From the NCBI GenBank assembly GCA_036557285.1, contig DATBHW010000073.1, positions 551-64,550 of the forward strand: DNA of 64,000 nt. Direction: 5' to 3'. The notes beneath the pieces were generated by a model. The model saw only the letters and a list, made by a program, of their open reading frames with translations. It did not search any database and had not been told where the DNA came from. Positions 7,246-61,517 of the stretch are shown here, piece after piece. Position numbers and translations under genes: made by a program. Origin of the DNA: Ktedonobacterales bacterium. Lineage in GTDB: Bacteria > Chloroflexota > Ktedonobacteria > Ktedonobacterales > DATBGS01. Numbering within the stretch: the first letter of the stretch is position 1; each line of letters starts with the position of its first letter.

Positions 7246-7274
7246 ACAATAGGAACAATGAATCGGCAAAACTG

Positions 7275-22560: not shown

Positions 22561-22596
22561 GATGGTTGATTCCGTTGCTGAGCTATTCCTTAGAGC

Positions 22597-22694: not shown

Positions 22695-23753
22695 GCCGCG
22701 TGGGCCAACCAGATCGCTCATGGGCTGAACATTGGCGGTGTCGCAGGTGAAGGCCAGGCAGCCCAGTTTCCAGCCGCCCTGGATGGTTGCGAGCATGGAG
22801 AAATGGTTATAGGCCACGTTGGACGTGCGCGGCGCGTGGTCAGAGTGTGAGATGACCAGCGTGACGACATGGCCGCCGCCATTGCCCGGTTCGGCGTCGC
22901 AGCAGCCGCTGGTGTCGCCAAAGCCAGAGTGGGTAGGAGAGCCAGTGAAGTCGCTCTCGTCCCAGGTGACGAAGATCACGGAGTTGCCCGTCCAGGCATG
23001 CGAGTTCATAATCGCGCTGACGGTATTGTTCAGGAAAGCATCACCAGCGGCAATCAACTCCTGGATGTGTCCGAAGCTGCACAGGTCGGTGGCGGGTCCG
23101 CCTCTGCCGTGCATATCGTTGCACTGGTCGGGGCTAATCCAGGTAAAGTCGGCGACATTTTTTTTGCTTGCCAGATCAGTACTCAACTGGCTGAAATCAA
23201 CGATATTTGCTGTGCGTGCCGGGTTTGTCTGGACATCCTGATAGGAGATGAAGGGGTTGTGCTTGCGTTCGTAAAGCTGATTGCCGCAGGCAGACGCCAG
23301 TATATTCCCGTTGCACAAAGAATAGGATTGCATATAGGCTTTCCAGGTCTTGCCATGCGCCTCAAGCTGGTCCACGATGTTGGGTACGGCGATGGTATGG
23401 TCGTTATCATCGAGAATGCCGTTCGTCGCGCCAGATGTGGCCGCGATATAGTTGGGCTGGCTAGGATGGATGACGCCTGTGTAGTTGGTGGCAAGCCCAT
23501 ACCTGGCGGCGGCATCGTTAATCCAGGGCGCGTTGGGATTGCCGATCAGGGCGTCGAAGCCGGTGTTCTCCATCATGATGACGAAGACATGCTGGAAGTT
23601 CTTGAGGTCCGAGCGGTTCCCGGCGGCTGCCTGGACTCCGGCAGCGGGGGCGAATAGCATGACAAAAAGCCCCAGCATGGACAAGGCAACTGCTCCAGGG
23701 ATGCCTACCCTGGTCACGAGACGACTCATGCGCCTATTCCTGTTCATGAGCAT
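22692..23753 (-). CDS. Secreted phosphoesterase-family protein (PLC/AcpA-like), paralog 1
   Basis: Signal peptide, HVFVIMMENTGFDALIG, HPSQPNY and FVTWDESD motifs. Confidence 0.8.
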   Translation of the reverse strand: MLMNRNRRMSRLVTRVGIPGAVALSMLGLFVMLFAPAAGVQAAAGNRSDLKNFQHVFVIMMENTGFDALIGNPNAPWINDAAARYGLATNYTGVIHPSQPNYIAATSGATNGILDDNDHTIAVPNIVDQLEAHGKTWKAYMQSYSLCNGNILASACGNQLYERKHNPFISYQDVQTNPARTANIVDFSQLSTDLASKKNVADFTWISPDQCNDMHGRGGPATDLCSFGHIQELIAAGDAFLNNTVSAIMNSHAWTGNSVIFVTWDESDFTGSPTHSGFGDTSGCCDAEPGNGGGHVVTLVISHSDHAPRTSNVAYNHFSMLATIQGGWKLGCLAFTCDTANVQPMSDLVGPRG

Positions 23754-24017: not shown

Positions 24018-24209
24018 ATGAAGAAATCAACCGAACCCAAGTTGCCACGCTGGACCATCACCATTTCGCCTGCCTTGATTGATGAGTTTCGTACCCTGGC
24101 CGCCGAACATAAACGGTCCTTAAACAGTGAACTGGTCTGGGCCTTAGAGCAATACGCCAAAGCTGAGCGGCGGACAGGGAAGAAGGATGCTGACCCGCAA
24201 GGCGTTTAA
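24018..24209 (+). CDS. Arc/MetJ-type ribbon-helix-helix protein encoded inside the tnpB element
   Basis: RWTITISPALIDEFRTLAAEHKRSLNSELVWALEQY fits beta-strand/helix/helix with the RS-N-E Arc signature. TTGACA-N18-TAGAAT promoter lies 6 nt upstream. The 3' end overlaps tnpB by 23 nt. Confidence 0.7.
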   Translation: MKKSTEPKLPRWTITISPALIDEFRTLAAEHKRSLNSELVWALEQYAKAERRTGKKDADPQGV

Positions 24210-25367
24210 GTATCGCCTCTCCCCGACTCGCGCTCAGGAGCGTATCTTGCTCTGGACGCTTACCCGCTGTCGAGAACTCTACAACGCCGCCCTGCAAGAG
24301 CGCCGTGATGCCTATCGTATGGGGGGCGTTTCTATCCGCGGCTTCCATCAAATCAACCAACTGCCGGAAATCAAGCAAGAGCGACCGGAATATGCCGACA
24401 TCCACAGCCAGATCTTGCAAGATGTCTTGCGTCGGGTGGATAAGGCCATGCAAGGGTTTTTTCGGCGCGTGAAGGTGGGCCAAAAGCCCGGCTATCCGCG
24501 TTTTCAGGGGCGCAACCGCTACGATAGTTTCATGTATCCCCAGGCGGGCTTTGCGCTGGCGGGCGAACGCTTGACGCTCTCCAAACTTGGAGACGTCAAG
24601 GTGCGCCTGCATCGCCCGCTAGTGGGGCAGGTAAAAACCTGCACGATCAAGCGCGAAGCCGATCAATGGTATGTCTGCTTCTCCTGTGAGGTGGAAGAAG
24701 AACCGGTGCCCGTGAGTGATGAAGCGGTTGGCCTGGATTTGGGCCTGCTGCATTTTGCCACGCTCTCCACTGGGGAAACCATCGAAAACCCGCGCCACTA
24801 CCGCAAAGGACTGAAGAAGTTAGCGCTAGCGCAGCAGAAGGTGTCCCGCTGCAAACGTGGTTCCCATCGGCGGGAACGGGCCAGGAAGGCCGTAGCGCGT
24901 GCCCATCGCAAGATTCGTAACCAGCGCCATGACTTCCTGCACAAAGCGGCGCGCTCCCTGGTCAATCGCTATGGCCTGATCGTCATGGAAGACCTGAAAA
25001 TCACGAATATGAGTGCCGCGCCCGCACCCAAGCCCGCCCCAAACCAGGACGGCGCGTATTTGCCTAACGGAGCCAGCGCCAAGGCTGGCTTGAATCTGTC
25101 GATTCTTGATGCTGGTTGGGGCCAGTTCCAAACCCTCTGTGTCGCCAAGGCTGCAAGTGCCGGACGCCTAGTAGAGTTTGTGGACCCCGCTATACAAGCC
25201 AGCGGTGTAGCCAATGCGGAGCGATTGCCAAGAAAGAGCTTTCTGAACGCTGGCATAGTTGCTCCTGTGGCTGCGAACTAGACCGCGATCACAACGCGGC
25301 GATCAACATTCTTCAGGCTGGGAAGCAGCCCACAGGTCTACGGGCCTGGAGAAGCCCCCTGCTTTAG
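24187..25367 (+). pseudogene. tnpB: TnpB (IS200/IS605 OrfB) interrupted by a 1-nt frameshift in a C4 run (25185-25188)
   Basis: Frame 1 (24187-25281) has the N-terminus MLTRKAFKYRLSPT, VGLDLG (D) and LIVMEDL (E). Frame 0 (to 25367) has PRYTSQRCSQCG...CSCGCELDRDHNAAINI (Zn ribbon plus the third Asp). Confidence 0.8.
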
Positions 25368-26456: not shown

Positions 26457-26688
26457 GGTTCCACCAATTATCGGGGGTTGCCACTTGTAGCGCCGCCCCC
26501 CTTCGGGAAGGGCCGCTTGCCTCGGCTATGCCTCGGCATGCTCGCTCCCGTTGGTCGCTCGCGCGTCCCTCCAGGCGGCTCAACGCTGGCCTGCTGGTGT
26601 GTTGGCCCGCAGGGCAAACGCTCGCGCTGGCGCAGCGGTGGCCGCCTGGAAGGCGGCGCTACAAGTGGCCCCGCTTTTTGCTAGAACC
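26457..26688. repeat. Family-A full MITE-like element with a perfect 9-bp TSD
   Basis: Termini GGTTCCACCAATTATCGGGGG...GCTAGAACC. GTCAGGATG occurs at 26448-26456 and again at 26689-26697. Confidence 0.9.
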
Positions 26689-26784
26689 GTCAGGATGCCC
26701 TTCCTTGCTCGCTGCCTTGGGATGCGATACAATCTGGTTAAGAGTTTCTCATACGCTGTCGAGACTGGAGTGGAGTTGTTCTGG

Positions 26785-29003: not shown

Positions 29004-29057
29004 TGTAGCGCGTCCCCCCTGCGACGAAACGCTGGCCGCCTGGAAGGCGGCGCTGCA
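29004..29057. repeat. Family-A degenerate fragment
   Basis: TGTAGCGCGTCC...GCCGCCTGGAAGGCGGCGCTGCA. Confidence 0.6.
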
Positions 29058-37527: not shown

Positions 37528-37537
37528 GGCTTAAGCG

Positions 37538-37635
37538 CACCTCACACAACCTCCGCACGAGCAGGGGCGGGGTTGTAGCGCCGTCCTTCCAGGCGGCAGG
37601 GGTGGGGCCAACCGTCGGTTGTGTGAGGCATTCTA
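37538..37635. repeat. Family-B hairpin repeat abutting the stop codon of phosphoesterase paralog 2
   Basis: CCTCACACAACC...GGTTGTGTGAGG outer stem. Direct repeat TAAGCGC at 37532-37538 and 37634-37640. Confidence 0.85.
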
Positions 37636-38601
37636 AGCGCCAGCGAAAAAATCGCGCATGGGATGCGTGCAGGAGCAGGCGGCATCGCCCAGTTTGCCAA
37701 GACCCCAGGCTTCTTCAATGGTCAGCAGCAGCGACGCATGGTTATAGGCCACATGAGACACAAACCCCGGCTTGCTGAGCGGCGAAATCACCAGCATGGG
37801 GATATGGCCGCCATCCGCGATCTGACAGCAGCCCGCATCGCTGCTGCCTTCGTCCCAGATCAGAAACAATACGCTCGATTGCCAGTCCGGGGAGCGGAGA
37901 ATCTGGGGCAGGAAGCTTTTCAGCCAGGCGTCGCCGGTTGCCACGCCGCAATCGTGCATATCATGGCAAAGATTGGGCGTGATCCAGACAAAATTGGGCA
38001 GGGCGTGCGCTCTGAGGTTGCTGGCAAAACTAGAGAGCGGGACGACGTTGGCGCAGCGTTTCGGGTTGGTGCGGATGTTATCAAAGTAGATAAAGGGGTT
38101 ATGCCGCTGGGCATAGTCTCCGTCGTCACCGACGAAGCAGGGCGACGGCATATCCTCCATGTAGGCTTTCCAGCTTTTTCTGGCGGTCTCTAACTGGTCC
38201 ACCAGATTGGGCGCATGCACAAAACAGGTCTCGCAATCGCTGTCTATCCCAAAGGTGCTGCCGCCCAGCAGTTCGAGATAATTGGGCAGGCTGGGATGAG
38301 TGATGCCAAAGTAATTGGCGGCTCTGCTGTAGCGATGGGCCAGGCTGTTGATGTAAGGCGCTTCACTATTGCCTATTACGTCGCTGGATTCTTCGTTTTC
38401 CATCACGAGAACGAAGATATGCTTGAAGTTGGGAAGCCCTGAAGCGGCAGGCTGAGCGGTTGCGGTTGCAGTGGGCGTATGGGGGCTGCCTGTGGGTGTC
38501 GCCGCTGATGGTGGAGATGGTGCCTGCCCGATTGATGATGATGAGCAGCTTGCGAGCAGCAAAAGCACCAGGCTGGAAGCCGCACTTATGCGCTTCAGCA
38601 T
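37633..38601 (-). CDS. Phosphoesterase-family lipoprotein (PLC/AcpA-like), paralog 2
   Basis: Lipobox LLLLASCSS, HIFVLVMENEESSDVIG, HPSLPNY and FLIWDEGS. By eye ~45% identical to paralog 1. Confidence 0.8.
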   Translation of the reverse strand: MLKRISAASSLVLLLLASCSSSSIGQAPSPPSAATPTGSPHTPTATATAQPAASGLPNFKHIFVLVMENEESSDVIGNSEAPYINSLAHRYSRAANYFGITHPSLPNYLELLGGSTFGIDSDCETCFVHAPNLVDQLETARKSWKAYMEDMPSPCFVGDDGDYAQRHNPFIYFDNIRTNPKRCANVVPLSSFASNLRAHALPNFVWITPNLCHDMHDCGVATGDAWLKSFLPQILRSPDWQSSVLFLIWDEGSSDAGCCQIADGGHIPMLVISPLSKPGFVSHVAYNHASLLLTIEEAWGLGKLGDAACSCTHPMRDFFAGA

Positions 38602-48136: not shown

Positions 48137-48238
48137 AGACTGGCAGCAAAGACAAGGGCAGGCGTCCTCCAAAACAGGTGGAGGACGCCTGCCCTTGTCT
48201 TGTCGGCTGCTTTGACACCTCTTTTTGTCTGCCCTTAT

Positions 48239-48556
48239 GGTTCTCCCAAATCTGAGGTGTTGGCAAGCGAGGCGTGTTACTGGTAGCGCCGCCTCCCTTC
48301 GGGAAGGGCCGCTTGCCTCCCCCTGCGGGGAGCGGCCCTTGCGGGAACCAGGTTCCCGCATTCTCCCTCGCTGCGCTCGGTCGCGGGCCGCTGCTGTTGC
48401 CCCGTCCTCTCGCTCCCGGTGGTCGCTCGCGCGTCCCTCCTGGCGGCCAGCGTTGGCCTGCTGGTCCGCTGGCCTGGAGGGCGAACGCTCGCCAGGGCGC
48501 AGCGTTGGCCGCCTGGAAGGCGGCGCTACAAGTGGCCCCCGATAATTGGTGGAACC
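48239..48556. repeat. Family-A full MITE-like element (longest copy) with an 8-bp TSD
   Basis: Termini GGTTCTCCCAAATCTGAGG...CCCCCGATAATTGGTGGAACC. GCCCTTAT occurs at 48231-48238 and again at 48557-48564. Confidence 0.9.
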
Positions 48557-48646
48557 GCCCTTATGGGCGAGCTTGCGCAAAAGCCCTCAACCATGTTACA
48601 GTATGTAAGGTGAAGTGTTTTTTACACGAGGGGGAGGGAACATTAG

Positions 48647-49070: not shown

Positions 49071-49195
49071 TGCAGCGCCGCTCACTTGCGGCGCCGCCTG
49101 GAAGGTGGCTCATCGTCGGGCTACCGGAACGTTCGCGCTCCAGGGCAACCGCTCGCCCAGCCGCAGCGGCTAGCCGCCTGGAAGGCGGCGCTACA
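49071..49195. repeat. Family-A core copy (variant head TGCAGCGCCGC)
   Basis: Ends GCCGCCTGGAAGGCGGCGCTACA. Lies just downstream of the PPTase gene. Confidence 0.75.
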
Positions 49196-49259
49196 AGTAG
49201 GCAGCCGCCTGTCCGCCGCCGGGATGGCGGCGGTACCGGTACAGACGCCCGTAGGCGGT

Positions 49260-50021
49260 TTAACCGCCAGCCTGCTGCCAACATGTGAGAGAAGCAGGCT
49301 GCCCCTGCACAGCCAGCGCCGCAACGTAGCCGGGACCAGGAGAGAGCGCGTGGAGCGACCAATCTGAGCTATCCTGGCCCTCTTCTCTGGTCGCCAGAAG
49401 TGCCGCTGGCTCCCCAGGAGCGAGCGAAACATCGAACAGGTTCAGGTCGAGCGAAAGACCCAGACCCCTCGCTTTGACATAGGCTTCTTTGCGGGTCCAG
49501 CAATTCAGGAAGGCTTCTTGCTTGTCCTGCGCAGCAACCGCCTGGAGCGCGTACACCTCATGGGGGGAGAAGAACCGCGTGGCGATTTGCTCATAGTCTG
49601 CGCCAGCGGGGCTGATCTGTTCGAGATCAATGCCGATAGCTCCGCAGCGTGTGATCGCGTAGAGGGCCAGGTCGTGGGAGTGCGCCAGATTGAAAAGCAG
49701 CGGCTCACTCCCTACTTCATCGGCGAGGGCTGGCTTGCCATATTCGTTGTAGGAGAAGCGCAGTGTCTGCGGCTCCCTGCTCAGATAGCGGCCCAGGATG
49801 CTTCTGAGCATGCCCCGCGCCGCGATAAAGCGGGCGCGGTCCCGTGAGAAGCGAAACTGCGACGCTCGCTGCCGTTCATCGGCAGCGAGCGTCTGCTCCA
49901 GCGCCTGCATATGTGACGCCGACAGGTTCAGCCTGGCGCGCCAGATATGCGCCTCGTCGGATGCTAAGATGGGTCGCTCTGGCGCCGCGCTCCAGAGGGA
50001 CTCCTGCGCGCTCAGCGTCAT
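49260..50021 (-). CDS. Sfp-type 4'-phosphopantetheinyl transferase
   Basis: GIDLEQI and WTRKEAYVKARG motifs. Start ATG 50021 overlaps the NRPS stop (ATGA). Confidence 0.85.
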   Translation of the reverse strand: MTLSAQESLWSAAPERPILASDEAHIWRARLNLSASHMQALEQTLAADERQRASQFRFSRDRARFIAARGMLRSILGRYLSREPQTLRFSYNEYGKPALADEVGSEPLLFNLAHSHDLALYAITRCGAIGIDLEQISPAGADYEQIATRFFSPHEVYALQAVAAQDKQEAFLNCWTRKEAYVKARGLGLSLDLNLFDVSLAPGEPAALLATREEGQDSSDWSLHALSPGPGYVAALAVQGQPASLTCWQQAGG

Positions 50022-53000
50022 ACCCGCTCTAGCTCGGCCTCCTGAACTTTTGCCAGGCAGGCGCTGAACTCTTCGGCCAGGCTGGAAAGGTGTTTGGTGA
50101 GGCAGCTCAGATGATCGCCAGGAATGACGTGCAGTTCCGTTTCTTGCGCGGCATCGGCAAGCCCGCGCCATTCGCTGGAGTCAGCGACTTCCTCTTTTGC
50201 CCAGAAGAACGTGATCTTGCCAGGATAAGCGCCAGGCGTATAAGCGGCTAACATCCAGGCAGTCATTGACCAGCGATCCCGGCAAAGCGTCGCCAGGGTT
50301 GGGAAAATCGCGCGGAGGCTGGGAAACGCCGCGCTCCCCTTGCCACGCCTGCGCCCGGCCTTGTTCATCTCCCGCCGGTACGGCGCAAACCGCAGGTACT
50401 TATAGAGGTGCCGTACCCACAGGAACGAATAGAACTGGCGATATTCTCCGATCCGCAGCGCCTTGCCAGGCAGGCTGATCGCGCGGCGCGTCAATTTGTC
50501 GGAGGCCGGAGCAGGCGGTGTGGGGTCAATCAAAACCAGCAAATCAACCTGCTGCCCTTGCCCTTGAAGCTGCCGGGCTATTTCATAGGCCAGCAGACCG
50601 CCGATGCAAAAGCCGCCCAGCAGATACGGACCTTCCGGCTGAATGGCCTGGATTGACCTTACATGCGTGGCCGCCATCGCCTCGAATGTGGGCGGAGCCT
50701 GCCGGGTATCAAACTTATACGGCTCGACGGTGTAGAAAGGCTGTTCTGGCCCCAGGTGATCAGCCAGGGGGAAGCAGTAGTAAGCGCCGCCGATGCGATC
50801 CTCGTGCATATAGAAGATCGGGCGTCTGGAACCGCCGGATTGAACCGCCACCACCGGCGCTTCGGCGATGGTAATGTCTTGTGACAGAATCTCGGCAAGC
50901 TGTTCAATCGTTGGCCCCGCAAAGAAGGTCGCCAGCGGAATCTTTTTGCCAAAGACCTGCTCGATGCCATTGACCAGGCGGGCTGCAAGGAGTGAATGCC
51001 CGCCTAAGAAGAAGAAGTTATCCCTGATCCCGATGGGCCGCGCCTCCAACAGTTCCTCCCAGAGATGGATCAGTTGATAGTGGACCATAGACATGGGCGG
51101 AACATAGTGTTCTTCCGCCGCGCTGTCCAGTTCAGGCGCGGGCAAGGCGCGTCGGTCTATTTTGCCGTTGGGCGTCTCAGGGAAGGCATCCAGCGTGGTG
51201 AAGGCCGCAGGTATCATGTAATCCGGCAGGTATTCACGCAAAAAGCTGCGCAGTTCATTGGCCTTGATTTCTTGCTGCTGGTGCGCGACGACGTAGGCGA
51301 CCAGGCGTTTGTCGCCCGGTGTATCCTCGCGGGCCAGCACCACCGCCTGCCGCACCGCCGGGTGCTGGACCAGTGTCGTCTCGATTTCGCCCAGTTCGAT
51401 GCGGAAGCCGCGAATCTTCACCTGAAAATCAACGCGCCCCAAGTGATCGATCTGCCCATCGGCGCGATAGCGGGCCAGATCGCCGGTCCTGTAGAGGCGC
51501 GCGTCTGGCCTGGCGCTAAAGGGATGGGGAATGAATCGCTCGGCGGTTAACTCCGGGCGATTGAGATAGCCGCGAGCCAGGCCGTCGCCCCCAATATAGA
51601 GTTCGCCTGGCACGCCGATGGGCGTTGGATTCAGGTGGGCGTCAAGCACGTAGATTTCTGTGTTGGCAATCGGACGCCCAATCGAGAGATCGTCTGCCGA
51701 CTGAACCAGAGAAAGCGTAGACCAGATGGTCGTTTCCGTCGGGCCGTACATGTTCCAGACGGAACCCGCTCTCGGCAGAAGCTGCGCGGCCAGTTCCGGG
51801 GGGAAAGCTTCGCCGCCGCAGAGAATCTTCAAGTACGGGCTGCCCTGCCACCCGGCGGCCAGCAGCAGCCGCCAGGTAACGGGTGTCGCCTGCATCACCG
51901 TAGCGCCGGAACGGGCCATGAGTTCGGCCAGCGCCGCGCCGTTGACAGTCGTTTCCCGGCTGGCGATGATGACCCGCGCGCCGACGATCAGCGGCAGGAA
52001 GAGTTCAAGACCGGCAATATCGAATGAGAGCGTGGTGATAGCCAGCAGCCGATCATTCGCCGTCAGCCCTGGCTGCTGGCGCATCGAGAGCAGGAAGTTG
52101 ACGACGGCGCGATGGGGAATCTGAACGCCCTTTGGCTTCCCCGTCGAGCCAGAGGTATAAATCACATAGGCCAGGTTCTCGGGGTTGGCCTGGGAGACCG
52201 GATTGAGGCTGCTCTGCTGTTTGAGCAGCGCCGCGTCGGCATCCAGGCGAACAATTTTGGCTGCGCCAGCGGGCAGTTGTGTCGTCAGGCGCTGCTGTGT
52301 GACCAGCGCCATGACCTGGGCATCCTCCAGCATGAAGGCCAGCCGTTCCTGGGGAAAGGCCGGGTCCAGTGGAATGTAGGTTCCGCCCGCCTTGAGGATG
52401 CCCAGCAGGCCCACGACCATCTCCAAAGAGCGTTCCATATACAGGCCCACGCGCACATCCGGGCCGACTCCCAGCTTCTGGAGGTAATGAGCAAGCTGAT
52501 TTGCGCGCTGGTTCAGTGCTTGATAGGTCAGTTGTTCCTTCTCATACACCAGGGCTACCCCTTCTGGTGTTCGCTGCGCCTGCGCCTCAAAAAGCTGGTG
52601 AACACACTCGTTCTCAGGATAGGCTGCCTGGGTGGCATTCCATGCTACCAGCAGTTGGCTGCGCTCCGCTTCTGTCAGCAGCGGCAGCCGAGAAAGGGGC
52701 TGGTCGGGGTTGGCTGCGATGTCTTGGAGCAAGGTCTGGAAATGCCCGGCCATCCGCTCGATGGTGGCGGCCTCAAAGAGATCGATATTGTACTCCAGCG
52801 ATCCGACCAGGCTGCCCGCCTCTTCCCAGATGTAGAGGGTCAGATCGAACTTGGACATGCTGATCTCTACGTCTAGGGAAGAGAGCGACAACCCGGCAGC
52901 CTCGACAGCGGTTGGCGCGGCATTCTGGTCGGCAATGACCACCTGGAAGAGCGGCGAATGGCTCAGGCTGCGTTCGGGGTGCAGCGCCTCCACCAACTTC

Positions 53001-54118
53001 TCGAAGGGCAGTTCATGATGGGCATACGCCTCCAGCGCCATTTTGCGTACCCGCTTGAGCAGTTCCCGAAAGCCGGGGTCGCCCGAAAGATCGGTGCGCA
53101 GCACCAGCATCGTGACCAGATACCCGATCAACTCCTGAACCTCGCTGCGGTTGCGGTTGGCGATAGGCGAACCCACCACGATGTCTTCCTGCCCAGTATA
53201 GCGGGAAAGCAGCACGTTGAAAGCCGCCAGCAAAGTCATGAAGATCGTCGCGCCTTCCTGCTGACTCAACGTCTGAATCTGCTCGGTGAGCGCCCTGGAG
53301 AGTCGAAAATTGTGGACGGCCCCACGAAAGGTCTGGATGGCCGGGCGTGGATGATCGGTAGGCAAATCCAGCACTGCGGGAGCGTCGGCCAACTGCTGTT
53401 TCCAGTAGGTAAGCTGGTCTTCCATCCGCTCCCCTTGCAGCCACTCGCGGCGCCAGAGGGCATAATCAGCGTATTGGATGGGCAGTTCAGGCAGCGGTGA
53501 TGGCTGTCCGGCGGTGAAGGCGCTGTAGAGGGTGGTCAGTTCTCGGACCAGAATACCTACCGACCACCCATCAGAGATGATGTGGTGCATGAGCAGAAGC
53601 AGGATATGTTCCTGCTCCGTCAGCCGGAACAGCATGGTCCGCAGCAGCGGCCCCTGGGCAAGATCGAATGGGCGCGTTATCTCCTCATTGATGGACTGTA
53701 TGGCTCGCGGCCAGCGCGCGCGATCTTCCAGGTCGCGCAGGTCTACCACCGAAAAAGGTAACTGGAGGGAGGAGGCGATCATCTGCACCGGGCGACCCTC
53801 GATGGCGGGGAACGTGGTACGCAAGGACTCGTGGCGTTTCACGATTTCTTGCAGGCTTTGCTCAAGCGCGGCGAGGTCGAGCGGGCCACTCAGGCGCAGC
53901 GCGTAGGGCAGATTATACGCCGCGCTGCCTGGAGTCAGTTGGTCAATGAACCAGAGCGGCTCCTGGGCAAAGGAGAGCGGTGGGTTAGACATGACCTGGC
54001 TGCGGCGCGGGATCGCCGTCGGGGTGGTCGTCACTTTTTGCTGCTCGATGAGCCGCTTCAGCAGGATTTCGCGTTTCTCCGGGGAAAGGTCTGCAATGCG
54101 TTTTGACAGGTCACTCAT
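50018..54118 (-). CDS. NRPS module 3: C-A-T-TE
   Basis: C domain MHHIISDGWS. A domain LAYVIYTSGSTGKPKG, NMYGPTE, GELYIGG and PNGKIDRRALP. T domain FFFLGGHSLL. TE domain GPYLLGGFCIGG...IPGDH. Confidence 0.95.
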   Translation of the reverse strand: MSDLSKRIADLSPEKREILLKRLIEQQKVTTTPTAIPRRSQVMSNPPLSFAQEPLWFIDQLTPGSAAYNLPYALRLSGPLDLAALEQSLQEIVKRHESLRTTFPAIEGRPVQMIASSLQLPFSVVDLRDLEDRARWPRAIQSINEEITRPFDLAQGPLLRTMLFRLTEQEHILLLLMHHIISDGWSVGILVRELTTLYSAFTAGQPSPLPELPIQYADYALWRREWLQGERMEDQLTYWKQQLADAPAVLDLPTDHPRPAIQTFRGAVHNFRLSRALTEQIQTLSQQEGATIFMTLLAAFNVLLSRYTGQEDIVVGSPIANRNRSEVQELIGYLVTMLVLRTDLSGDPGFRELLKRVRKMALEAYAHHELPFEKLVEALHPERSLSHSPLFQVVIADQNAAPTAVEAAGLSLSSLDVEISMSKFDLTLYIWEEAGSLVGSLEYNIDLFEAATIERMAGHFQTLLQDIAANPDQPLSRLPLLTEAERSQLLVAWNATQAAYPENECVHQLFEAQAQRTPEGVALVYEKEQLTYQALNQRANQLAHYLQKLGVGPDVRVGLYMERSLEMVVGLLGILKAGGTYIPLDPAFPQERLAFMLEDAQVMALVTQQRLTTQLPAGAAKIVRLDADAALLKQQSSLNPVSQANPENLAYVIYTSGSTGKPKGVQIPHRAVVNFLLSMRQQPGLTANDRLLAITTLSFDIAGLELFLPLIVGARVIIASRETTVNGAALAELMARSGATVMQATPVTWRLLLAAGWQGSPYLKILCGGEAFPPELAAQLLPRAGSVWNMYGPTETTIWSTLSLVQSADDLSIGRPIANTEIYVLDAHLNPTPIGVPGELYIGGDGLARGYLNRPELTAERFIPHPFSARPDARLYRTGDLARYRADGQIDHLGRVDFQVKIRGFRIELGEIETTLVQHPAVRQAVVLAREDTPGDKRLVAYVVAHQQQEIKANELRSFLREYLPDYMIPAAFTTLDAFPETPNGKIDRRALPAPELDSAAEEHYVPPMSMVHYQLIHLWEELLEARPIGIRDNFFFLGGHSLLAARLVNGIEQVFGKKIPLATFFAGPTIEQLAEILSQDITIAEAPVVAVQSGGSRRPIFYMHEDRIGGAYYCFPLADHLGPEQPFYTVEPYKFDTRQAPPTFEAMAATHVRSIQAIQPEGPYLLGGFCIGGLLAYEIARQLQGQGQQVDLLVLIDPTPPAPASDKLTRRAISLPGKALRIGEYRQFYSFLWVRHLYKYLRFAPYRREMNKAGRRRGKGSAAFPSLRAIFPTLATLCRDRWSMTAWMLAAYTPGAYPGKITFFWAKEEVADSSEWRGLADAAQETELHVIPGDHLSCLTKHLSSLAEEFSACLAKVQEAELERV

Positions 54119-54124
54119 CTCACG

Positions 54125-57100
54125 TCATCTCTCCGTTCGCTTGCTCTCAATTACCAGGATGTCTTGCGCTTCATGATCGGAAAGCTGCTCAAGCTCTGCG
54201 AGCAACTGGGCCGTTACTCCATCTTCGATCTGGTCGGCCTGACACTGCACAATTCTTATAGCCAGGCTGGCTATCGTTGGCGCCTCAAAGAGACTGGACA
54301 ACGGAAGCTCTATATTGAAGATGTCATGCGCCCGCGAGAGGGCGCGCACCGCCAGGAGCGAATGCCCCCCCAACTCAAAGAAGTTCTCGTTGATGCCCAC
54401 CTGCTTGAGTCCCAGCAGTTCTGTCCAGATCGCGGCCAGTTGTTCCTCGGTAGGGGTGCGCGGCGCTGCAAGAGCCGCTTCTGGCTGTTCTCTGTCGCCC
54501 TCCGGGGCAGGCAGCGCCCGCCGGTTCAGTTTGCCGTTGGGGGTCAGCGGCACATATTCTAACATAACAAATGCCGATGGGATCATATGCTCTGGCAGGT
54601 GTTCCTTCAAGAAGCCGCGCAGGGCGCTGCTGGTGGGGGACTGGCCCGCAGCAGGCACAAGATACGCCACCAGGCGCTTCTCGCCAGGGGTGTCTTCGCG
54701 GGCCACGACCACTGCCTCGCGGACCTGGGGATGCTGGCTCAGGATACTCTCGATCTCGCCTGGTTCGATACGGAAGCCCCGAATCTTCACCTGGAAGTCG
54801 GCGCGCCCGATGTACTCCAGATTGCCATCGGGATGATAGCGGGCGAGATCGCCGGTCTTGTAGAGGCGCGCGCCTGGCTCCTGACTGAACGGGTTGGGGA
54901 TAAACCGCTCGGCGGTCAGTTCCGGGCGGTTCAGATAGCCACGCGCCAATCCGTCGCCGCCGATATAGAGTTCGCCAGGCACACCGATAGGGACAGGCTG
55001 AAGGTGGGCGTCAAGCGCGTAAACCTGCAAGTTGGCGTTAGGCCGACCAATGAGTATCGTGGAAACCTCCTGATCTTCGCCCTCCCTCACCAGATCATAG
55101 GTGGTTGCGCCGATGGTTGCCTCGGTTGGGCCATAGCAGTTGCTCCAGCGAACGCGCTTAGGGACGCGCTCCTGCCAGAGCGTCAGACGCTGTAGCAGGG
55201 CTTGCTCGCCCCCCGTGATGACCCAGCGCAGGCTCTCCGGCAGCGGTGTGTTTGCTTTGGCGAGTTCATAGGTCCAGGTATGCCAGTAGGCTGTCGGGAG
55301 GTTCAGAATGCTCAGCCGCTCATGCTCTATGAGCCGGAACAATTCCTCGAAGGTCAGGGCAACCTGTACAGGCCGCAGCACCAGCGCGGCCCCCGCCAGC
55401 CAGCATGGGAAGATTTCCTCTGCTGCCGTATCAAAGCTGAGCGAAGCAAATTGCAAGATGCGATCAGCAGGCCGGACATCGAAGTGTTTGATAAAGGCCA
55501 GGTTATGGTTGACGAGCGCGCGATGGGCAATCTGAACGCCCTTCGGTTTCCCCGTAGAGCCAGAGGTGTAGATGACATAGGCCAGGTTGTCGGCCTGGAC
55601 CGCGCTGACGGGGTTCGTCGTGGGTTCTTGAGCGATTTCTGCCCACTGCCCATCCAGGCAAATGACGCGAGCGTTCTGCGCGGGAAGCTGCGCCAGCAGA
55701 TGCTGCTGCGTGAGTAGAACGGCTGCCTGGCTGTCCTCCAGCATGAAGGCCAGGCGCTCTGTGGGATAGCTGGGGTCCAGCGGCACATACGCGCCGCCCG
55801 CCTTGAAAATACCGAGGAGTCCCACCGCCATTTCCAGCGAACGCTCCACACAGAGGCCCACGAGTGTCTCTGGCCCCACCCTTTGCTTTTGGAGATGATG
55901 GGCCAGTTGGTTGGCGCGCGCGTTCAGTTCCCCATAGGTAAGCTGGCGCCCCTCGCTGACAAGAGCTACTGCGTCTGGCGCGCGCGCCACCTGCTGCTCG
56001 AAGAGCCAGTGGACACACTGGTCCTGGGGGTAATCGGCTTGGGTAGCATTCCACTCTACCAGCATCTGCTCTCGCTCGGCCTCTGGTAAGAGCAAAAGCT
56101 GGGAGATAGGTTGGTCGGGATCAACCGCGATGCCTTCCAGCAGCGTCTGGAAATGCCCAGCCATCCGCTCGATGGTCGCCGCCTCGAACAGATCGGTGTT
56201 GTAATCGAACGTGCCGCTGAGATCCTCTGGCCGCTCCTTTAAGGCGAGGCTCAGGTCAAACCCGGCGTCGAGGCCAGCCCCGATATGCAGCAGGGCGGCA
56301 GCCCACCCGGAAGGCAGGGCAGGCGGCGGCGATTCAAGCGTAAACATCGTCTGGAAGAAGGGGTTCTGCCGTGGCGCGCGCTCCGGGTGGAGTTCTTTGA
56401 CCAGATGCTCGAAGGGCATGTCCTCGTGATCCAGCGTGGAGAGCGTGGTCTCGCGTACCCGCTGAAGCAGCGCCCGGAAGCCTGGATCGCCAGAGAGGTC
56501 CAGACGCAGGGCCAGGGTATTGATGAAGACGCCCAACAGCCCACGGACTTCTTCCTGCTTGCGGCCAGCGGAAGGGGTACCAATAATGAGGTCCTCCTGG
56601 CCGGAACAGCGCGCCAACAGGACAGCGTAGGCGGCCAGCAGAGTCATGAAAAGGGTAGCGCCCCCCTGCTGGCTGAGGGCTTTGAGGGCAGCGGTTGTCT
56701 GTGCAGGCAGGGTGAACGAATGCGCGCACATCTGGCCTTTGGAGGCGACGGGACGCGGGTGATCGCCAGGCAGCGCAAGATCGGTTGGCGCTCCGGCCAG
56801 ATGATGCTTCCAGAAATCCAGATGCTCTGCCAATGCCCTTTCGTCGAGCGTTTCGCGCTGCCAGCAGGCGTAATCGGCATATTGGATGGGCAGCTCTGGC
56901 AAGAGCGAGGGCTGGCCGGTCGCATACGCCTGGTAGAGAGCATATAGCTCTGGCAGGAGTATCTGCGAGACAGAGAAGCCATCGGAGATGATGTGATGGA
57001 GGGTTAAGAACAGCCGATGCTCCTCATCGTCCAGGCAAACGAGGCGGGCGCGCAGCGGGGGCGCCTGCGAGAGATCAAAGGGCGCGGTGGTATTCTCTGC

Positions 57101-57517
57101 TGCCAGTCGCAGCGCCTCAGCTTCGCGTTCAGTCCTGGGCAGGCGGCGCAGGTCCGTGAAGGGCAGCCGGAAGATGGAGGGCGGATGAATTTGTTGGACA
57201 GGCTGCCCCTCTATCAGTGGAAAACTGGTGCGCCAAACTTCGTGACGCCGGATGAGTTCGTTGAAGCTCTGTTCAAGAGCCGCTCGATCGAGCGGCCCAG
57301 GCAGAGAGATACTCACACTCAGGTGATAGACAGGAAGATGCGGGGTGAGTCGGCTCAGCAGCCAGAATTGCTGCTGCGCAAAGGACAGCGGCACAGGCCC
57401 ATCGTGGGCGCGTCGAGTGATTGTTTCAGCATCCACGCTTGTCGGAAACAGCTTGCCCCGCAAGAGCTTTTCCAGCAGGGCGCGTTTGGCCTCAGAGAGA
57501 TTGCTTGTGTCTGACAT
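54125..57517 (-). CDS. NRPS module 2: C-A-T
   Basis: C domain LHHIISDGFS. A domain LAYVIYTSGSTGKPKG, NCYGPTE and PNGKLNRRALP. T domain FFELGGHSLL. Confidence 0.95.
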   Translation of the reverse strand: MSDTSNLSEAKRALLEKLLRGKLFPTSVDAETITRRAHDGPVPLSFAQQQFWLLSRLTPHLPVYHLSVSISLPGPLDRAALEQSFNELIRRHEVWRTSFPLIEGQPVQQIHPPSIFRLPFTDLRRLPRTEREAEALRLAAENTTAPFDLSQAPPLRARLVCLDDEEHRLFLTLHHIISDGFSVSQILLPELYALYQAYATGQPSLLPELPIQYADYACWQRETLDERALAEHLDFWKHHLAGAPTDLALPGDHPRPVASKGQMCAHSFTLPAQTTAALKALSQQGGATLFMTLLAAYAVLLARCSGQEDLIIGTPSAGRKQEEVRGLLGVFINTLALRLDLSGDPGFRALLQRVRETTLSTLDHEDMPFEHLVKELHPERAPRQNPFFQTMFTLESPPPALPSGWAAALLHIGAGLDAGFDLSLALKERPEDLSGTFDYNTDLFEAATIERMAGHFQTLLEGIAVDPDQPISQLLLLPEAEREQMLVEWNATQADYPQDQCVHWLFEQQVARAPDAVALVSEGRQLTYGELNARANQLAHHLQKQRVGPETLVGLCVERSLEMAVGLLGIFKAGGAYVPLDPSYPTERLAFMLEDSQAAVLLTQQHLLAQLPAQNARVICLDGQWAEIAQEPTTNPVSAVQADNLAYVIYTSGSTGKPKGVQIAHRALVNHNLAFIKHFDVRPADRILQFASLSFDTAAEEIFPCWLAGAALVLRPVQVALTFEELFRLIEHERLSILNLPTAYWHTWTYELAKANTPLPESLRWVITGGEQALLQRLTLWQERVPKRVRWSNCYGPTEATIGATTYDLVREGEDQEVSTILIGRPNANLQVYALDAHLQPVPIGVPGELYIGGDGLARGYLNRPELTAERFIPNPFSQEPGARLYKTGDLARYHPDGNLEYIGRADFQVKIRGFRIEPGEIESILSQHPQVREAVVVAREDTPGEKRLVAYLVPAAGQSPTSSALRGFLKEHLPEHMIPSAFVMLEYVPLTPNGKLNRRALPAPEGDREQPEAALAAPRTPTEEQLAAIWTELLGLKQVGINENFFELGGHSLLAVRALSRAHDIFNIELPLSSLFEAPTIASLAIRIVQCQADQIEDGVTAQLLAELEQLSDHEAQDILVIESKRTER

Positions 57518-57641
57518 GATGCTCTATCACTCCTAGTGGAGAGCGTCTTTCGCTGTCAATGGCGGCTTCCAAATCAGCCCCTGATGTGCTCAGCTTAAGC
57601 GAGAGACGATTCCACTATTAAAACGGGTTCGCAGTGCCCTT

Positions 57642-60600
57642 TTAACTCAATAACTGCTGCAATTCTTCGTCGCTCAGCGTCTCTAGTTTGGTCAAAATCA
57701 CTTCTTCAATGGTGGCGGCCAACTCGCGGACTGTGGGCGCGTCGAAAAGGGTGCGCAAGGAAAGCTTTACCTTGAAGGTTTCGTTCATCCGCGCGATAGC
57801 CTGAGTACCCAACAAAGAATTGACCCCGATCATAAAGAAGTTCTCGTCGAGGCCAACCTGCTCCACTTTCAGGAAGCCAGCCAGGATCGCCGCCACTTCA
57901 ATTTCCATAGGCGTGCTGGGCAGTGCGCCGATCTCATCACGCACGAGATGATCGGTATCTGGCGCGGGCAGGGCGCGGCGATCCACTTTGCCGTTGGGGG
58001 TCAGCGGCATCTGCTCTACCATTACAAAGGCCGATGGTATCATGTAATCCGGCAAATACTCCTTCAGAAAGCTGCGCAGCCCCGCGTGAGCAGGCGGGTC
58101 TCCTTCGCCTGCTACGAAATAGGCCACCAGGCGCTTATCGCCTGGGGTATCTTCGCGGGCCACCACGACAGCCGCGCGTATTGCCGGATGCTGCCGGAGC
58201 AGCGTCTCGACTTCGCCCAGTTCGATGCGGAAGCCGCGCACCTTCACCTGATGATCCAAGCGTCCTAGAAAATCAATTTCCCCTGTAGGCAAATAGCGTG
58301 CCAGATCGCCTGTTCTGTAGAGCCGCGCCCCTGGATCGGCGCTAAACGGGTCGGGAACAAATCGCTCAGCCGTCAATTCCGGGCGATTGAGATACCCGCG
58401 CGCCAGACCGGCCCCGCCAATATAGAGTTCGCCAGAGACGCCAATGGGGACAGGCTGAAGGGAAGCATCGAGCAGATAGACCTGAGTGTTGGCAATCGGG
58501 ACGCCGATGGTGATCAGATTGGTATCGGGCGTGATCTGGCGGATGGTGGACCAGATGGTCGTCTCCGTTGGGCCGTAGAGGTTCCACAAAGACGCGCACT
58601 TGTTCAGCAATTGCTGAGCCAGGTCACGCGGCAGGGCTTCGCCCCCACAGAGCATCTTCAGGCGCGGGTCTCCCGACCAGCCCGCCTCCAACAGCAGCCG
58701 CCAGGTAACGGGTGTCGCCTGCATTACGGTTGTTCCGGTACGCGCCATCGTCTCCGCCAGCACCGTCCCGCTCACCGCTGTTTCGCGGCTGGCGATAACC
58801 ACCCGCGCGCCGACCAGCAGCGGCAGGAAAAGTTCAAGGGCAGCAATATCGAAGGATAACGTAGTGACGGCCAGCCAGGTATCCTCCGCCGTCAGTCCGG
58901 GCCGCTCGCGCATGGACAACAAAAAGTTCACCACCGTGCGCTGGAGTATCTGGACTCCTTTGGGCCGCCCTGTGGACCCCGAAGTGTAGATGACATAGAC
59001 CAGATTCTCGGCAGTGGACAGGCTGGCAGGGTTCGTCTGATCTTGCTCGGCCAGCAGCCGCGCGTCGGCGTCAAGGCGCACGACCTGTGCATTCTGTGTG
59101 GGCAGCAAGGACGCCAGCGTGGCTTGCGTGACGAGGACCGGAACCTGGGCATCTGTCAGCATGAAGGCCAGCCGCTCAGCCGGATATGTGGGGTCCAACG
59201 GCACATACGCGCCGCCCGCCTTGAGAATGCCCAGCAGGCCAACCTCCATCTCCAGCGAACGCTCCAGACACAGGCCCACCAGTACGTCTGGACCCACGCC
59301 AAGCTGGCGCAGGTAGTGAGCCAGTTGATTGGCACGCGCATTGAGTTCTTGATAGGTAAATGCAGCGCCCTCATAGATCACGGCTGTGGCCTGCGGTGTG
59401 CGCGCCGCCTGCTCCTCGAAAAGCTGATGAATACAGACATTGGTGGGGAACGCTCGTTGGGTGGCGTTCCACTCCTCCAGCAGTTTTTGCTCCGCTGGCG
59501 TCAGGATAGGTAAAGCAGAAAGGGGCCGATTGGGGTCAGCGACGATGCTCTCCAGCAGCGTCTGCCAGTGTCCGACCATGCGCTCGATGGTTGTCCTATC
59601 GAACAGGTCCGAGTTGTACTCGAAGCGGCCAATAAGCCCCTCTGGTCGGTCATCGAGTTCGAGGGACAGATCGAACTTGGACGTTCCGACGGTCACATCC
59701 ATCTGCGTCAGCGTCCACCCGGAGGGCAGCGCCGTCAGCGGAGGCTCCAGGGTCAGCAACACCTGGAAGAGCGGATTCTGAGCGAGGTTTCGCTCCAGTT
59801 GCAGTTCCTTGATGAGATACTCGAAAGGTACCTCTTCATAGGTAATCGCCGAGGTCGTCACTTCGCGCACGCGCATCAGCAGTTCGCGGAAGGTCGGGGC
59901 ACCGGATAAGTTGGTGCGCAGCACCAGGGTATTGAGGAAAAAGCCGATCATGCGCTCGACTTCGGGGCGCTTGCGTCCTCCGGTGGCTGTGCCGATGACC
60001 ATATCATCCTGCGCCGTATAGCGGTAAAGCAGCGTGTTGAATGCCGCCGCCAACAGGATATAGAAGGTCACGCCCTCCTGGCGGCTCAGGGCTTTGAGCG
60101 CGTCAGTCAAGGGCTTTCCAATCGCAAAGGGGCGCATGGACCCGGCGTAGGTCTGTGCTGGCGGGCGCGGGCGATCAAAAGGCAATTCTAGGGTGGCGGG
60201 CGCGCCTTCAAGCTGTTTTTTCCAATAGACAAGCTGGTCGTCGAACTTTTCCTTTGGGAGCCATTCACGCTGCCAGGCGGCGTAATCGGTATATTCGATC
60301 TCTAATGGGGGCAGCGGAGAAGGCTGGCCTGCTAAAAAAGCCTCGTAAAGCGCGCGCAGTTCTGGAAGAAACACCTGATAAATGGCAACCCCATCAAAAA
60401 TGATATGGTGCATCGTCAGGAACAGGCGATGCTCCTCATCCGCCAGTTGTATAAAGAGCGCGCGCAGCAGCGGCCCCTGGGCAAGATCGAAGAGAATGCG
60501 CGCGTCTTCTGTTGCCAGCCGCAGCGCCTCGGCCTCTCGTTCAGCTTCAGGCAGGCGCCGCAGGTCCACCAGGGGCAGCCTGACGGTTGAGGGAGGATGC

Positions 60601-60929
60601 ACCATCTGGACCGGCTGCCCATCCACCAGCGGAAAGCTGGTGCGCCAGGCTTCGTGGCGCTTGATGAATTCATTAAAACTCTGCTCCAGCGTTGCTACAT
60701 CCAGCGGGCCAGGCAGGTGAATGGTGACGCACTCGTTGTAGACAGGAATATCAGGCATCATTTGGGCGAGCAGCCACAATTGCTGCTGTCCAAAAGACAG
60801 CGGCGCAAAGCCTGTCTGAGTCCGCCGGGAGATAGCAGGGATACCTGTGGTAGCCTGCGGGAGATTGCCCCGCATCAGTTTATCCAGCAGGGCGCGTTTA
60901 GCCTCTGAGAGATTGCTTGTATCTGACAT
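57642..60929 (-). CDS. NRPS module 1: C(starter)-A-T
   Basis: Start trimmed to ATG 60929 (GGAGAAGGAA SD). C domain MHHIIFDGVA. A domain LVYVIYTSGSTGRPKG, NLYGPTE and PNGKVDRRALP. T domain with an atypical FFMIGVNSLL core. Confidence 0.95.
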   Translation of the reverse strand: MSDTSNLSEAKRALLDKLMRGNLPQATTGIPAISRRTQTGFAPLSFGQQQLWLLAQMMPDIPVYNECVTIHLPGPLDVATLEQSFNEFIKRHEAWRTSFPLVDGQPVQMVHPPSTVRLPLVDLRRLPEAEREAEALRLATEDARILFDLAQGPLLRALFIQLADEEHRLFLTMHHIIFDGVAIYQVFLPELRALYEAFLAGQPSPLPPLEIEYTDYAAWQREWLPKEKFDDQLVYWKKQLEGAPATLELPFDRPRPPAQTYAGSMRPFAIGKPLTDALKALSRQEGVTFYILLAAAFNTLLYRYTAQDDMVIGTATGGRKRPEVERMIGFFLNTLVLRTNLSGAPTFRELLMRVREVTTSAITYEEVPFEYLIKELQLERNLAQNPLFQVLLTLEPPLTALPSGWTLTQMDVTVGTSKFDLSLELDDRPEGLIGRFEYNSDLFDRTTIERMVGHWQTLLESIVADPNRPLSALPILTPAEQKLLEEWNATQRAFPTNVCIHQLFEEQAARTPQATAVIYEGAAFTYQELNARANQLAHYLRQLGVGPDVLVGLCLERSLEMEVGLLGILKAGGAYVPLDPTYPAERLAFMLTDAQVPVLVTQATLASLLPTQNAQVVRLDADARLLAEQDQTNPASLSTAENLVYVIYTSGSTGRPKGVQILQRTVVNFLLSMRERPGLTAEDTWLAVTTLSFDIAALELFLPLLVGARVVIASRETAVSGTVLAETMARTGTTVMQATPVTWRLLLEAGWSGDPRLKMLCGGEALPRDLAQQLLNKCASLWNLYGPTETTIWSTIRQITPDTNLITIGVPIANTQVYLLDASLQPVPIGVSGELYIGGAGLARGYLNRPELTAERFVPDPFSADPGARLYRTGDLARYLPTGEIDFLGRLDHQVKVRGFRIELGEVETLLRQHPAIRAAVVVAREDTPGDKRLVAYFVAGEGDPPAHAGLRSFLKEYLPDYMIPSAFVMVEQMPLTPNGKVDRRALPAPDTDHLVRDEIGALPSTPMEIEVAAILAGFLKVEQVGLDENFFMIGVNSLLGTQAIARMNETFKVKLSLRTLFDAPTVRELAATIEEVILTKLETLSDEELQQLLS

Positions 60930-61143: not shown

Positions 61144-61384
61144 GGTTCCACCAACTATCGGAGGCGTCACCTGTAGCGCCGCCATCTTGGCGGCCACCGC
61201 TGCGCCAGGGCGAGCGTTCGCCCTCCAGGCCACCGGACCAGTGGGCCAACGTTGAGCCGCCTGGAGGGACGCGCGAGCGACCAACGGGAGCGAGAGTGCC
61301 GAGGCCCAGCCGAGGCAAGCGGCCCTTCCCGAAGGGATGGCGGCGCTACGAGTACCATGCCTCGCTTGCCAGATCTCATTTTTT
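61144..61384. repeat. Family-A full MITE-like element, inverted orientation, with an 8/9 TSD
   Basis: 11-bp perfect TIR GGTTCCACCAA...TTGGTGGAACC. Flanked by AGCAGACTC (61135-61143) and AGCGGACTC (61385-61393). Confidence 0.85.
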
Positions 61385-61517
61385 GGTGGAACCAGCGGAC
61401 TCTGCGTGGTTACAATTCTGAAGAGGACGTGTTATCCTTAGCATAAGGTCAAGAGTTTCTTCGGGTATGTGCAGCGTCTTCGTAGCGTGTACCTGTCAGA
61501 TAAAGAGATGATGTGGC

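Follow-up and report, generated by a model that had tools for sequence, protein, structure and literature searches.

A probable family of ISKra4-derived miniature elements with a REP-like core in an uncultured Ktedonobacterales bacterium

The 64-kb stretch of DNA analyzed here (64,000 nucleotides; hereafter the window) originates from an uncultured soil Ktedonobacterales (Chloroflexota) bacterium and harbors a family of short repeats, the focal copy of which occupies positions 48239-48556. The evidence makes it very probable that these repeats are miniature transposable elements bounded by inverted repeats (MITEs) and derived from insertion sequences (ISs) of the ISKra4 family, that they enclose a core resembling repetitive extragenic palindromes (REPs), and that they are targeted to the vicinity of promoters. 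ISKra4 elements employ prokaryotic Mutator-like DDE transposases of the group p-MULT 4 (PMC3942029). This reading is carried by the anatomy of the copies, the identity of their ends with those of transposase-encoding ISs, the duplications flanking them, a fixed spacing to promoter-like sites, and orthologous sites in related genomes at which the element is absent.

Complete copies share inverted ends and short flanking duplications

The window contains 4 complete copies with GGTTC…GAACC inverted ends and flanking duplications of 8-9 bp, together with a decayed fifth copy. A MITE-like family had been proposed in an earlier reading of the letters alone (the sequence-only reading), and this family proved to be real, with termini, core boundaries, and flanking repeats located at or near where that reading had placed them. 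The copies, with their duplications compared base by base, are:

48239-48556, focal MITE, 318 bp: B end (48239-48279), REP-like core (48283-48529), A end (48536-48556); duplication GCCCTTAT at 48231-48238 and 48557-48564, 8/8 identical
20925-21099, MITE copy, 175 bp: B end, REP dimer, A end; duplication ATCGCTCAG at 20916-24 and 21100-08, 9/9 identical
26457-26688, MITE copy, 232 bp: A end and an A'-type end, GGTTCTAGCAAAAAGCGGGG, akin to the left end of the IS in L023; duplication GTCAGGATG at 26448-56 and 26689-97, 9/9 identical
61144-61393, MITE copy, 250 bp: A end, core, B-like end; duplication AGCAGACTC at 61135-43 and AGCGGACTC at 61394-402, 8/9 identical
13571-13776, decayed MITE, 206 bp: A end with 2 mismatches, B-like end starting with GTCCC

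Module A (GGTTCCACCAATTATCGGGGG, 21 nt) matches the window 5 times at up to 3 mismatches, compared to 0 matches expected from shuffles, and module B (41 nt) is found twice as an exact match (0 expected). Ends of the form GGTTC(C/T)…GGAACC are paired in all 4 complete copies. The type of end differs among copies, comprising A, A', B, and B-like ends. The focal MITE consists of the 175-bp backbone and a 143-nt hairpin-rich insert, which interrupts the loop of the first REP unit; the 61144 copy contains this nested segment in a 75-nt version. Unlike in the other copies, the core of the 26457 copy is inverted relative to its ends.

For 2 copies, the initial description had to be amended. The fourth copy itself was confirmed, but its end, previously placed at 61384, lies at 61393, and the right repeat accordingly spans 61394-61402. 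The fifth and less clear copy (13571-13776) is present in a decayed state, with GTCCC in place of GGTTC at its end and no flanking duplication.

In all 4 complete copies (in the order 20925, 26457, 48239, and 61144), direct repeats of 9, 9, 8, and 9 bp abut the ends, the focal duplication being readable as 9 bp if the next G is counted. Beyond the 8-9 bp repeats, the flanks of the copies are unrelated to each other. Copies elsewhere are duplicated as well (L numbers designate the loci and contigs used for comparison): a 175-bp copy in L005 is flanked by the 9-bp repeat CAAGGTATG, a 93-bp relative in L015 by the 9-bp repeat AATGAATGC, and a copy in L014 by a repeat of 8-9 bp. The inverted repeats of p-MULT elements have been described as 18-39 bp long with a C at the end, and their duplications as measuring 8 or 9 bp (PMC3942029), and the window elements fit this description with their 21-nt repeat ending in …GGAACC and their duplications of 8-9 bp.

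The ends correspond to inverted repeats of ISKra4-family insertion sequences

Sequence collections, among which the source contig was not included, were scanned with the exact 21-nt module A as the query. In reference genomes, matches were found at 4 loci, all of them in metagenome-assembled genomes (MAGs) of Ktedonobacterales/Chloroflexota, and a metagenome scan revealed 11 further loci. In L008 and L011, module A is followed after approximately 65 nt by an open reading frame (ORF) that starts with MYVTVSLKIEL and encodes an ISKra4-family transposase. Full-length homologues (431-434 aa) score 235-241 bits on NCBIfam NF033572 (ISKra4 family), for which the cut-off is 205, and 89-96 bits on the ISLre2 profile, which is under its cut-off of 200.

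The IS in L023 (2413-3817, 1405 bp) has GGTTCCACCAAAAAGAGGGGG as its left end and a right end that is identical to module A (21/21), and it is flanked by the perfect 9-bp duplication CAGCAGCGG. The IS in L020 (1751-3826, 2076 bp; also present in L008) carries module A at its left end (21/21). Side-by-side alignment identified module A as the inverted repeat of these ISs. Furthermore, the 26457 copy has a right end similar to the left end of the L023 type, and module B aligns with the left end of L023/L025 plus about 20 nt of subterminal DNA. The sequence-only reading had suggested searching the genome for an IS with GGTTC(C/T) ends; ISKra4-family ISs with an identical end (module A) were found in related Ktedonobacterales.

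In agreement with the earlier claim that no cognate transposase is present, tblastn with the IS transposase revealed no ISKra4-type homologue in the window, and Pfam annotation revealed no other DDE transposase and no Y1 transposase of the REP-associated type (RAYT) among the window genes. As the window copies encode no transposase, they represent derivatives of the ISKra4 group rather than members themselves.

Shortened ISs with the same ends were identified as well: the transposase genes in L013/L014 are truncated at the 5' end, and only fragments are present in L011 and L019. In L008 (904-1560, minus strand) and also in L020, the left inverted repeat is separated from the start codon of the ISKra4-family transposase gene by a group II intron without an ORF (Rfam RF00029, 47.7 bits), the one in L008 being the sole Rfam hit outside the window; its insertion extended the IS from about 1.4 kb to 2076 bp. 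In L006 (1-330), a minus-strand gene adjoining a module A end contains tandem 18-nt repeats, AGTCCAAACAGTCCCTTT, up to the end of the contig.

Insertions lie at a fixed distance from promoter-like sites

According to Guerillot et al. 2014 (PMC3942029), TnGBS/ISLre2 elements, together with some ISKra4-group ISs (ISKra2, 4, 5, and 6 among others), take positions about 16 bp upstream of the -35 boxes of sigma-A promoters. In the ISKra4 group, the promoter can lie on either side of the element because its two inverted repeats are nearly identical (PMC3942029). For 13 independent insertions, including MITEs and full ISs, sigma-70-like promoters were scored against TTGACA/TATAAT with a spacer of 16-18 and a -35 start 14-18 nt outward from either end (maximum score 12). 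A score of at least 8 was reached by 9 of the 13 insertions, with the -35 observed at 15-17 nt, compared to 3.3% of random window positions (binomial P ~3e-11), and a score of at least 10 by 4 of the 13 (0.07% of random window positions). When offsets of 0-44 nt were scanned, scores of at least 8 occurred in 6 elements at exactly 16 nt, in 2 elements each at 15 and 17 nt, and almost nowhere else. Two insertions outside the window and 4 predicted promoters within it have the following properties:

IS in L023: flank CCGCTGCTGGAGGCGC, -35 TTGACA, spacer 17, -10 TATACT
MITE in L005: flank CATACCTTGAGCAGAA, -35 TTGACC, spacer 17, -10 TATCAT
26705-26733 (+), predicted tpiA promoter next to the element end at 26688: flank GTCAGGATGCCCTTCC, TTGCTC, spacer 17, TACAAT, -35 at 16 nt
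48573-48602 (+), predicted Dabb promoter next to the focal end at 48556: flank GCCCTTATGGGCGAGC, TTGCGC, spacer 18, TACAGT, -35 at 16 nt
61410-61438 (+), predicted promoter next to the element end at 61393: flank AGCGGACTCTGCGTGG, TTACAA, spacer 17, TATCCT, -35 at 16 nt, facing the response-regulator gene at 61518
13525-13553 (-), predicted promoter at the A end of the 13571 copy: TTGTGA, spacer 17, TATAAT, score 10/12, -35 at 17 nt, facing an IF-2B-family gene

Consequently, 4 of the 5 window copies precede, by 16-17 nt, a promoter-like site directed toward the neighboring gene. The exception, the 20925 copy, lies between the stop codons of convergent GH15 and MarR genes, the MarR stop codon being part of its duplication.

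Two further observations concern the flanks. A 13-mer, CGAGCTTGCGCAA, which contains the -35-like TTGCGC, adjoins the A end of 2 MITE copies (21122-21134 and 48568-48580) at distances of 22 and 11 nt, respectively, the 21122 instance being located within the MarR coding sequence; this recurrence could reflect chance or a target-recognition cue. In addition, a promoter-like sequence (TTGACA-18-TATGGT, 10/12; 48212-48241, plus strand) extends across the junction between the left duplication and the focal MITE, and the insertion may thereby have created a promoter that reads into the element.

The element is absent from orthologous sites in related genomes

At the tpiA locus of 3 related genomes (L035, L036, and L038; triosephosphate isomerase 88-89% identical), the element is absent, and TTGCTC/TTGCCT-N17-18-TACAAT is kept upstream of tpiA in all 3. 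The 26457 copy ends exactly 16 nt ahead of this conserved tpiA -35. The same holds for the Dabb locus of L040 and L042 (DUF4097 protein 78-80% identical), which lacks the element and retains the Dabb promoter, TTGCGC-N17-18-TACAGTAT, and here the focal copy ends 16 nt before the -35. The gene order in L040 is DUF4097 gene, hairpin, and Dabb gene, while in L042 a CMD-family gene is located between the DUF4097 and Dabb genes. Retention of the promoters in relatives that are devoid of the element shows that they are genuine at least to the point of being conserved, and that a lineage-specific insertion has taken place. Matches resembling GGTTCCGCCAA in L040 and L042 were rejected as candidates for the element, as they correspond to a short conserved motif. 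The comparison of empty sites that had been proposed earlier was informative between species, with the element absent at 2 loci; among same-strain contigs, it revealed no polymorphism.

The window corresponds to positions 27514-91513 of a 175.7-kb metagenome contig from the Joint Genome Institute (JGI), and identical sequence across the copies was assembled in 3 JGI samples, which argues against an assembly artifact. Short-read contigs of other samples do break within the elements (L003, L004, L029, and L034), as would be compatible with a chimeric metagenome assembly or with the segmental duplication of larger blocks. However, the long contigs from 3 independent samples are identical across the copies, the flanks outside the 8-9 bp repeats are unrelated, and the gene order around the copies agrees with that in related genomes, which leaves an artifact with a negligible probability.

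The core consists of GTAG-tagged REP-like units

The interior of the elements is built of units of the form GTAGC-GCCGCC-(5-nt loop)-GGCGGC, with a 6-bp stem and the loops TTCCA, ATCTT, ATCCT, and GGGAC. The core boundary GTAGCGCCGCC matches the window 26 times at up to 1 mismatch, compared to 3.0 +/- 1.6 expected matches, and 19 of these are exact; in contrast to these 19, the same core head was not found in about 43 kb from related genomes. Core units are arranged in inverted pairs with the GTAG heads outward, at 11 sites in the 64 kb, all of which are located between called genes. The sequence-only reading had described hairpin modules that resemble REPs or bacterial interspersed mosaic elements (BIMEs), and the anatomy of the core is indeed that of GTAG-tagged REPs (PMC3733652), which are known to occur in Chloroflexi (Di Nocera et al. 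2013, PMC3733652). It had also claimed core-only copies, and 6 palindrome clusters without IS ends or duplications bear this out, the segment 49205-49244 being an additional core unit:

1949-2128, core-only REP-like cluster that shares 87-88% identity with the 26457 and 61144 cores
11647-11701, minimal core, a doublet of 2 inverted GTAG-tagged units resembling a REPIN (a paired REP hairpin), which fills a 68-nt gap between same-strand genes
18533-18686, core-only cluster of 3 GTAG-tagged units, 2 direct and 1 inverted
29004-29057, degenerate core-only unit
49071-49244, core-only cluster with units ending at 49195 and 49244, between convergent genes

The anatomy of the core raises the question whether the whole family could be a pure REP/BIME/REPIN array, spread by a RAYT (Y1) transposase or by recombination, with GGTTC…GAACC being only the outer part of a palindrome. 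The GTAG tag, the 6-bp stem, the 5-nt loop, and the inverted dimers, which occur 6 times without an IS end, would suit such an origin, as would the presence of GTAG REPs in Chloroflexi and of 2 IS200/IS605-family TnpB genes in the window. However, ISKra4-family ISs that encode a transposase have inverted repeats identical to these ends, and the ends enclose unrelated cores in L007, L009, L015, and L017. Moreover, the complete copies carry 8-9 bp duplications, which are not a product of Y1 transposition, the 16-nt promoter spacing agrees with ISKra4 biology, and the window genes include no Y1/RAYT gene. REP/RAYT activity as the sole mechanism is refuted by the IS-identical ends, the duplications, and the promoter spacing, and we consider a pure REP origin extremely unlikely. 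A RAYT in the window as mobilizer of the core was likewise dropped as a candidate, given that only 2 TnpB genes and no Y1 transposase were identified.

These TnpB genes (OrfB_IS605 / Cas12f-like TNB) are located at 16502-17581 (minus strand) and 24187-25281 (plus strand), with no adjacent Y1 TnpA gene. The latter lies between a phosphoesterase gene and terC, and the relative L035 lacks both TnpB and terC at this position.

Within the ISKra4-derived MITEs, the core units probably represent a separate repeat family, which would have colonized the MITE or been captured at its formation. In other lineages, the same IS ends surround other GC-rich palindromes: L015, L016, and L018 contain GTAG-GGGCGACC-CTTGC-GGTCGCCC, and L007, L009, and L017 contain still other cores. 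This variety inside the same IS ends indicates that ISKra4 ends have been combined with local palindromes more than once. MITEs may be invaded by REPs or may capture them at their formation, or there may be selection for hairpin cores that join the ends. In a more far-reaching scenario, GTAG REPs would repeatedly lodge in ISKra4-derived MITEs, and the transposase would then deliver hairpins 16 nt upstream of promoters, resulting in a lineage-specific layer of insulation or regulation and in a RAYT-independent spread of REPs; we regard this scenario as speculative and rather unlikely in its entirety.

The short elements appear to move as a unit

The 20925 and 48239 copies are colinear with one from another MAG (L005 6940-7114), and these 3 have identical B-core and core-A junctions and 91-95% identity, although they occupy 3 unrelated loci in 2 genomes. 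Common junctions and a shared non-IS core at 3 loci argue against an independent in-place decay of full ISs. Under such a decay, each copy would be a separate full IS that has lost its interior in place, and the short elements would never have transposed. Deleted ISs with these ends do exist (L013/L014, L011, and L019, see above), and the variation of ends among copies (A, A', B, and B-like) would also be in line with separate origins. Nevertheless, the shared core and junctions speak against it, and tblastn revealed no remnant of transposase coding sequence in any window copy, which renders this alternative very unlikely.

In L005 (7115-7160) and L007 (6076-6120), the A end is followed at equal distance by homologous coding sequence (…DFE(N/K)AL…, minus strand). 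Since the 2 elements belong to different MAGs and contain different cores, this site may represent an old shared insertion in which the core has been replaced.

The reading as a non-autonomous, DDE-mobilized MITE, as put forward from the sequence alone, is thus upheld by ends that match ISKra4-family inverted repeats, by duplications of the size typical of this family (8-9 bp; PMC3942029), and by empty sites at 2 loci. The lack of a transposase in the window implies that mobilization would occur in trans. According to the model that we propose, a complete copy would have retained only the 2 ends of an IS, with A corresponding to the 21-nt inverted repeat and B or A' to the left repeat, joined or not by about 20 nt of subterminal DNA. 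GC-rich hairpins of the GTAG-tagged REP-like type, arranged as inverted dimers, would have taken the place of the transposase gene, and in some copies extra hairpin segments would have become nested in the loop of one hairpin. An ISKra4-type transposase, presumably encoded elsewhere in the genome, would bind both ends in trans. Movement might proceed through a circular intermediate, by analogy with the ISKra4 family, and would be followed by insertion in either orientation with an 8-9 bp duplication, preferably about 16 bp upstream of a sigma-A-type -35.

Several observations weigh against this model. The full ISs in L020 and L025 are devoid of duplications, and all matched ISs originate from related MAGs or metagenome contigs rather than from the source genome, of which the 64-kb window and about 10 kb of the 175-kb contig were examined and found to contain no autonomous IS with these ends. 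Same-strain contigs from 4 samples, the only ones recovered by exact matches to proteins of flanking genes, are 100% identical, and insertion polymorphism was not seen among them. The 20925 copy, a perfect copy between convergent stop codons, has no promoter at 16 nt. Finally, a stricter promoter scan recovers only 1 of the 4 window promoters (the 13571 site); the other 3 predicted promoters score only 7-8/12 and are upheld by the offset scan and, for 2 of them, by conservation in related genomes.

Folding and possible effects on neighboring genes

The copies are predicted to fold into long hairpins of -95 to -176 kcal/mol; in comparison to shuffled sequences, the z-scores range from -4.0 to -6.2. 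No T-run characteristic of terminators was found at the element ends in a scan of the 4 promoter-adjacent copies, and a scan of the whole window against Rfam 15 yielded 0 matches. The sequence-only reading had placed many copies at the 3' ends of genes, where they might act as terminators; this was not borne out, as 4 of 5 copies lie 16-17 nt upstream of a promoter-like site and the T-run is absent. Furthermore, the gene upstream of the focal copy, coding for the DUF4097 protein, is followed by its own long and perfect hairpin (48150-48200), which is kept as a structure in L040 (3104-3165) with a different stem sequence. This pattern of conservation is as expected of a functional terminator, though the hairpin has no clear T-run.

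It has been considered that the host may have co-opted the hairpins 16 nt upstream of promoters as insulators, terminators, RNA-stability elements, or protein-binding sites, which would be compatible with an origin as MITEs. The very stable predicted folds (z of -4 to -6) and the location between an upstream gene and the next promoter fit such a role, and effects of REPs and MITEs on the stability of mRNA and on termination have been reported for other bacteria (PMC3733652). On the other hand, the scanned MITE copies lack a T-run at their ends, there is no Rfam match, the orthologous promoters of related genomes manage without the element, and the gene upstream of the focal copy retains a hairpin of its own. 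As transposase targeting alone accounts for the position, co-option seems improbable. The best-supported view is that of a selfish, trans-mobilized element, the position of which follows from the targeting by the transposase, while an insulating or regulatory side effect of a predicted hairpin of 175-318 bp located 16 nt upstream of a promoter is possible.

Relation to known mobile elements

ISKra4-group ISs (ISKra2/4/5/6 of Ktedonobacter racemifer; PMC3942029) share with the window elements the terminal C, the 8-9 bp duplications, the host order Ktedonobacterales, and the insertion about 16 nt upstream of a sigma-A-type -35 with the promoter on either side, and the repeat sequence is the same as in the ISKra4-family ISs recovered here. 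In contrast, the window copies have no transposase gene, measure 175-318 bp rather than about 1.4 kb, and contain REP-like palindromes that are not IS-derived. TnGBS/ISLre2 elements (p-MULT 3) likewise insert 15-17 nt upstream of sigma-A -35 boxes and generate 8-9 bp duplications, but they are autonomous elements of Firmicutes that belong to another transposase family and use a single orientation of insertion.

With bacterial MITEs such as Correia/NEMIS, RUP, ERIC, and Nezha, the family has in common its short and non-coding nature, IS-matching terminal repeats, duplications, multiple intergenic copies, a strong hairpin fold, and presumably the dependence on a transposase supplied in trans. 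It differs from them in its Mutator-like ISKra4 parent, the fixed-distance targeting of promoters, and a second repeat class as cargo. GTAG REPs, REPINs, and BIMEs (PMC3733652) resemble the core in the combination of GTAG with a GC-rich 6-bp stem and a 5-nt loop, the inverted dimers and clusters, the extragenic location, and the occurrence of stand-alone copies without duplications. However, there is no RAYT among the window genes, the REP dimer is enclosed by DDE-type repeats with which it would move, and long hairpin-rich segments are nested in one REP loop of window copies.

MITEs have been described before, as have ISKra4 elements, promoter-targeting Mutator-like transposases, and GTAG REPs, and our findings do not overturn the current understanding. 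The notable features are the promoter-proximal targeting that the MITE has inherited and the REP-like cargo. Reports of ISKra4-derived MITEs, or of MITEs in Ktedonobacteria, were not found in the searchable literature, with ISfinder lying outside this search. The results tie an abundant, previously unexplained repeat of uncultured Ktedonobacterales to a specific transposase family, and they extend the promoter targeting of ISKra4 elements to miniature derivatives. Because of their landing distance of 16 nt upstream of -35 boxes, the copies can serve as markers of likely sigma-A promoters where transcript data for an organism are lacking. Moreover, the combination of DDE-type ends with a REP-like core shows that 2 classes of small bacterial repeats can merge, which bears on how hairpin repeats spread. 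Repeat annotation is affected too, because these elements break short-read assemblies here.

Other repeats in the window

A 105-nt repeat (22592-22696 and 37534-37638, 92% identical) is located just 3' of the stop codon in each of 2 paralogous genes for phosphoesterases (PF04185). Within this repeat, a REP-like unit of the GT(A/G)CAGCGCCGTCCTTCCAGGCGGC type is enclosed by a 12-bp inverted repeat, CCTCACACAACC / GGTTGTGTGAGG; the 105-nt repeat may represent a duplicated 3' element rather than a mobile one. An 82-nt direct repeat (7164-7245 and 9807-9888, 93% identical) was found in a region (6373-9500) whose ORFs lack a Pfam match. Furthermore, 3 tandem nonribosomal peptide synthetase (NRPS) genes (1366, 1130, and 1095 aa) extend over 50018-60929 on the minus strand, next to a phosphopantetheinyl transferase gene at 49260-50021, and the repeat families D1-D12 of the window result from the homologous modules of these NRPS genes.

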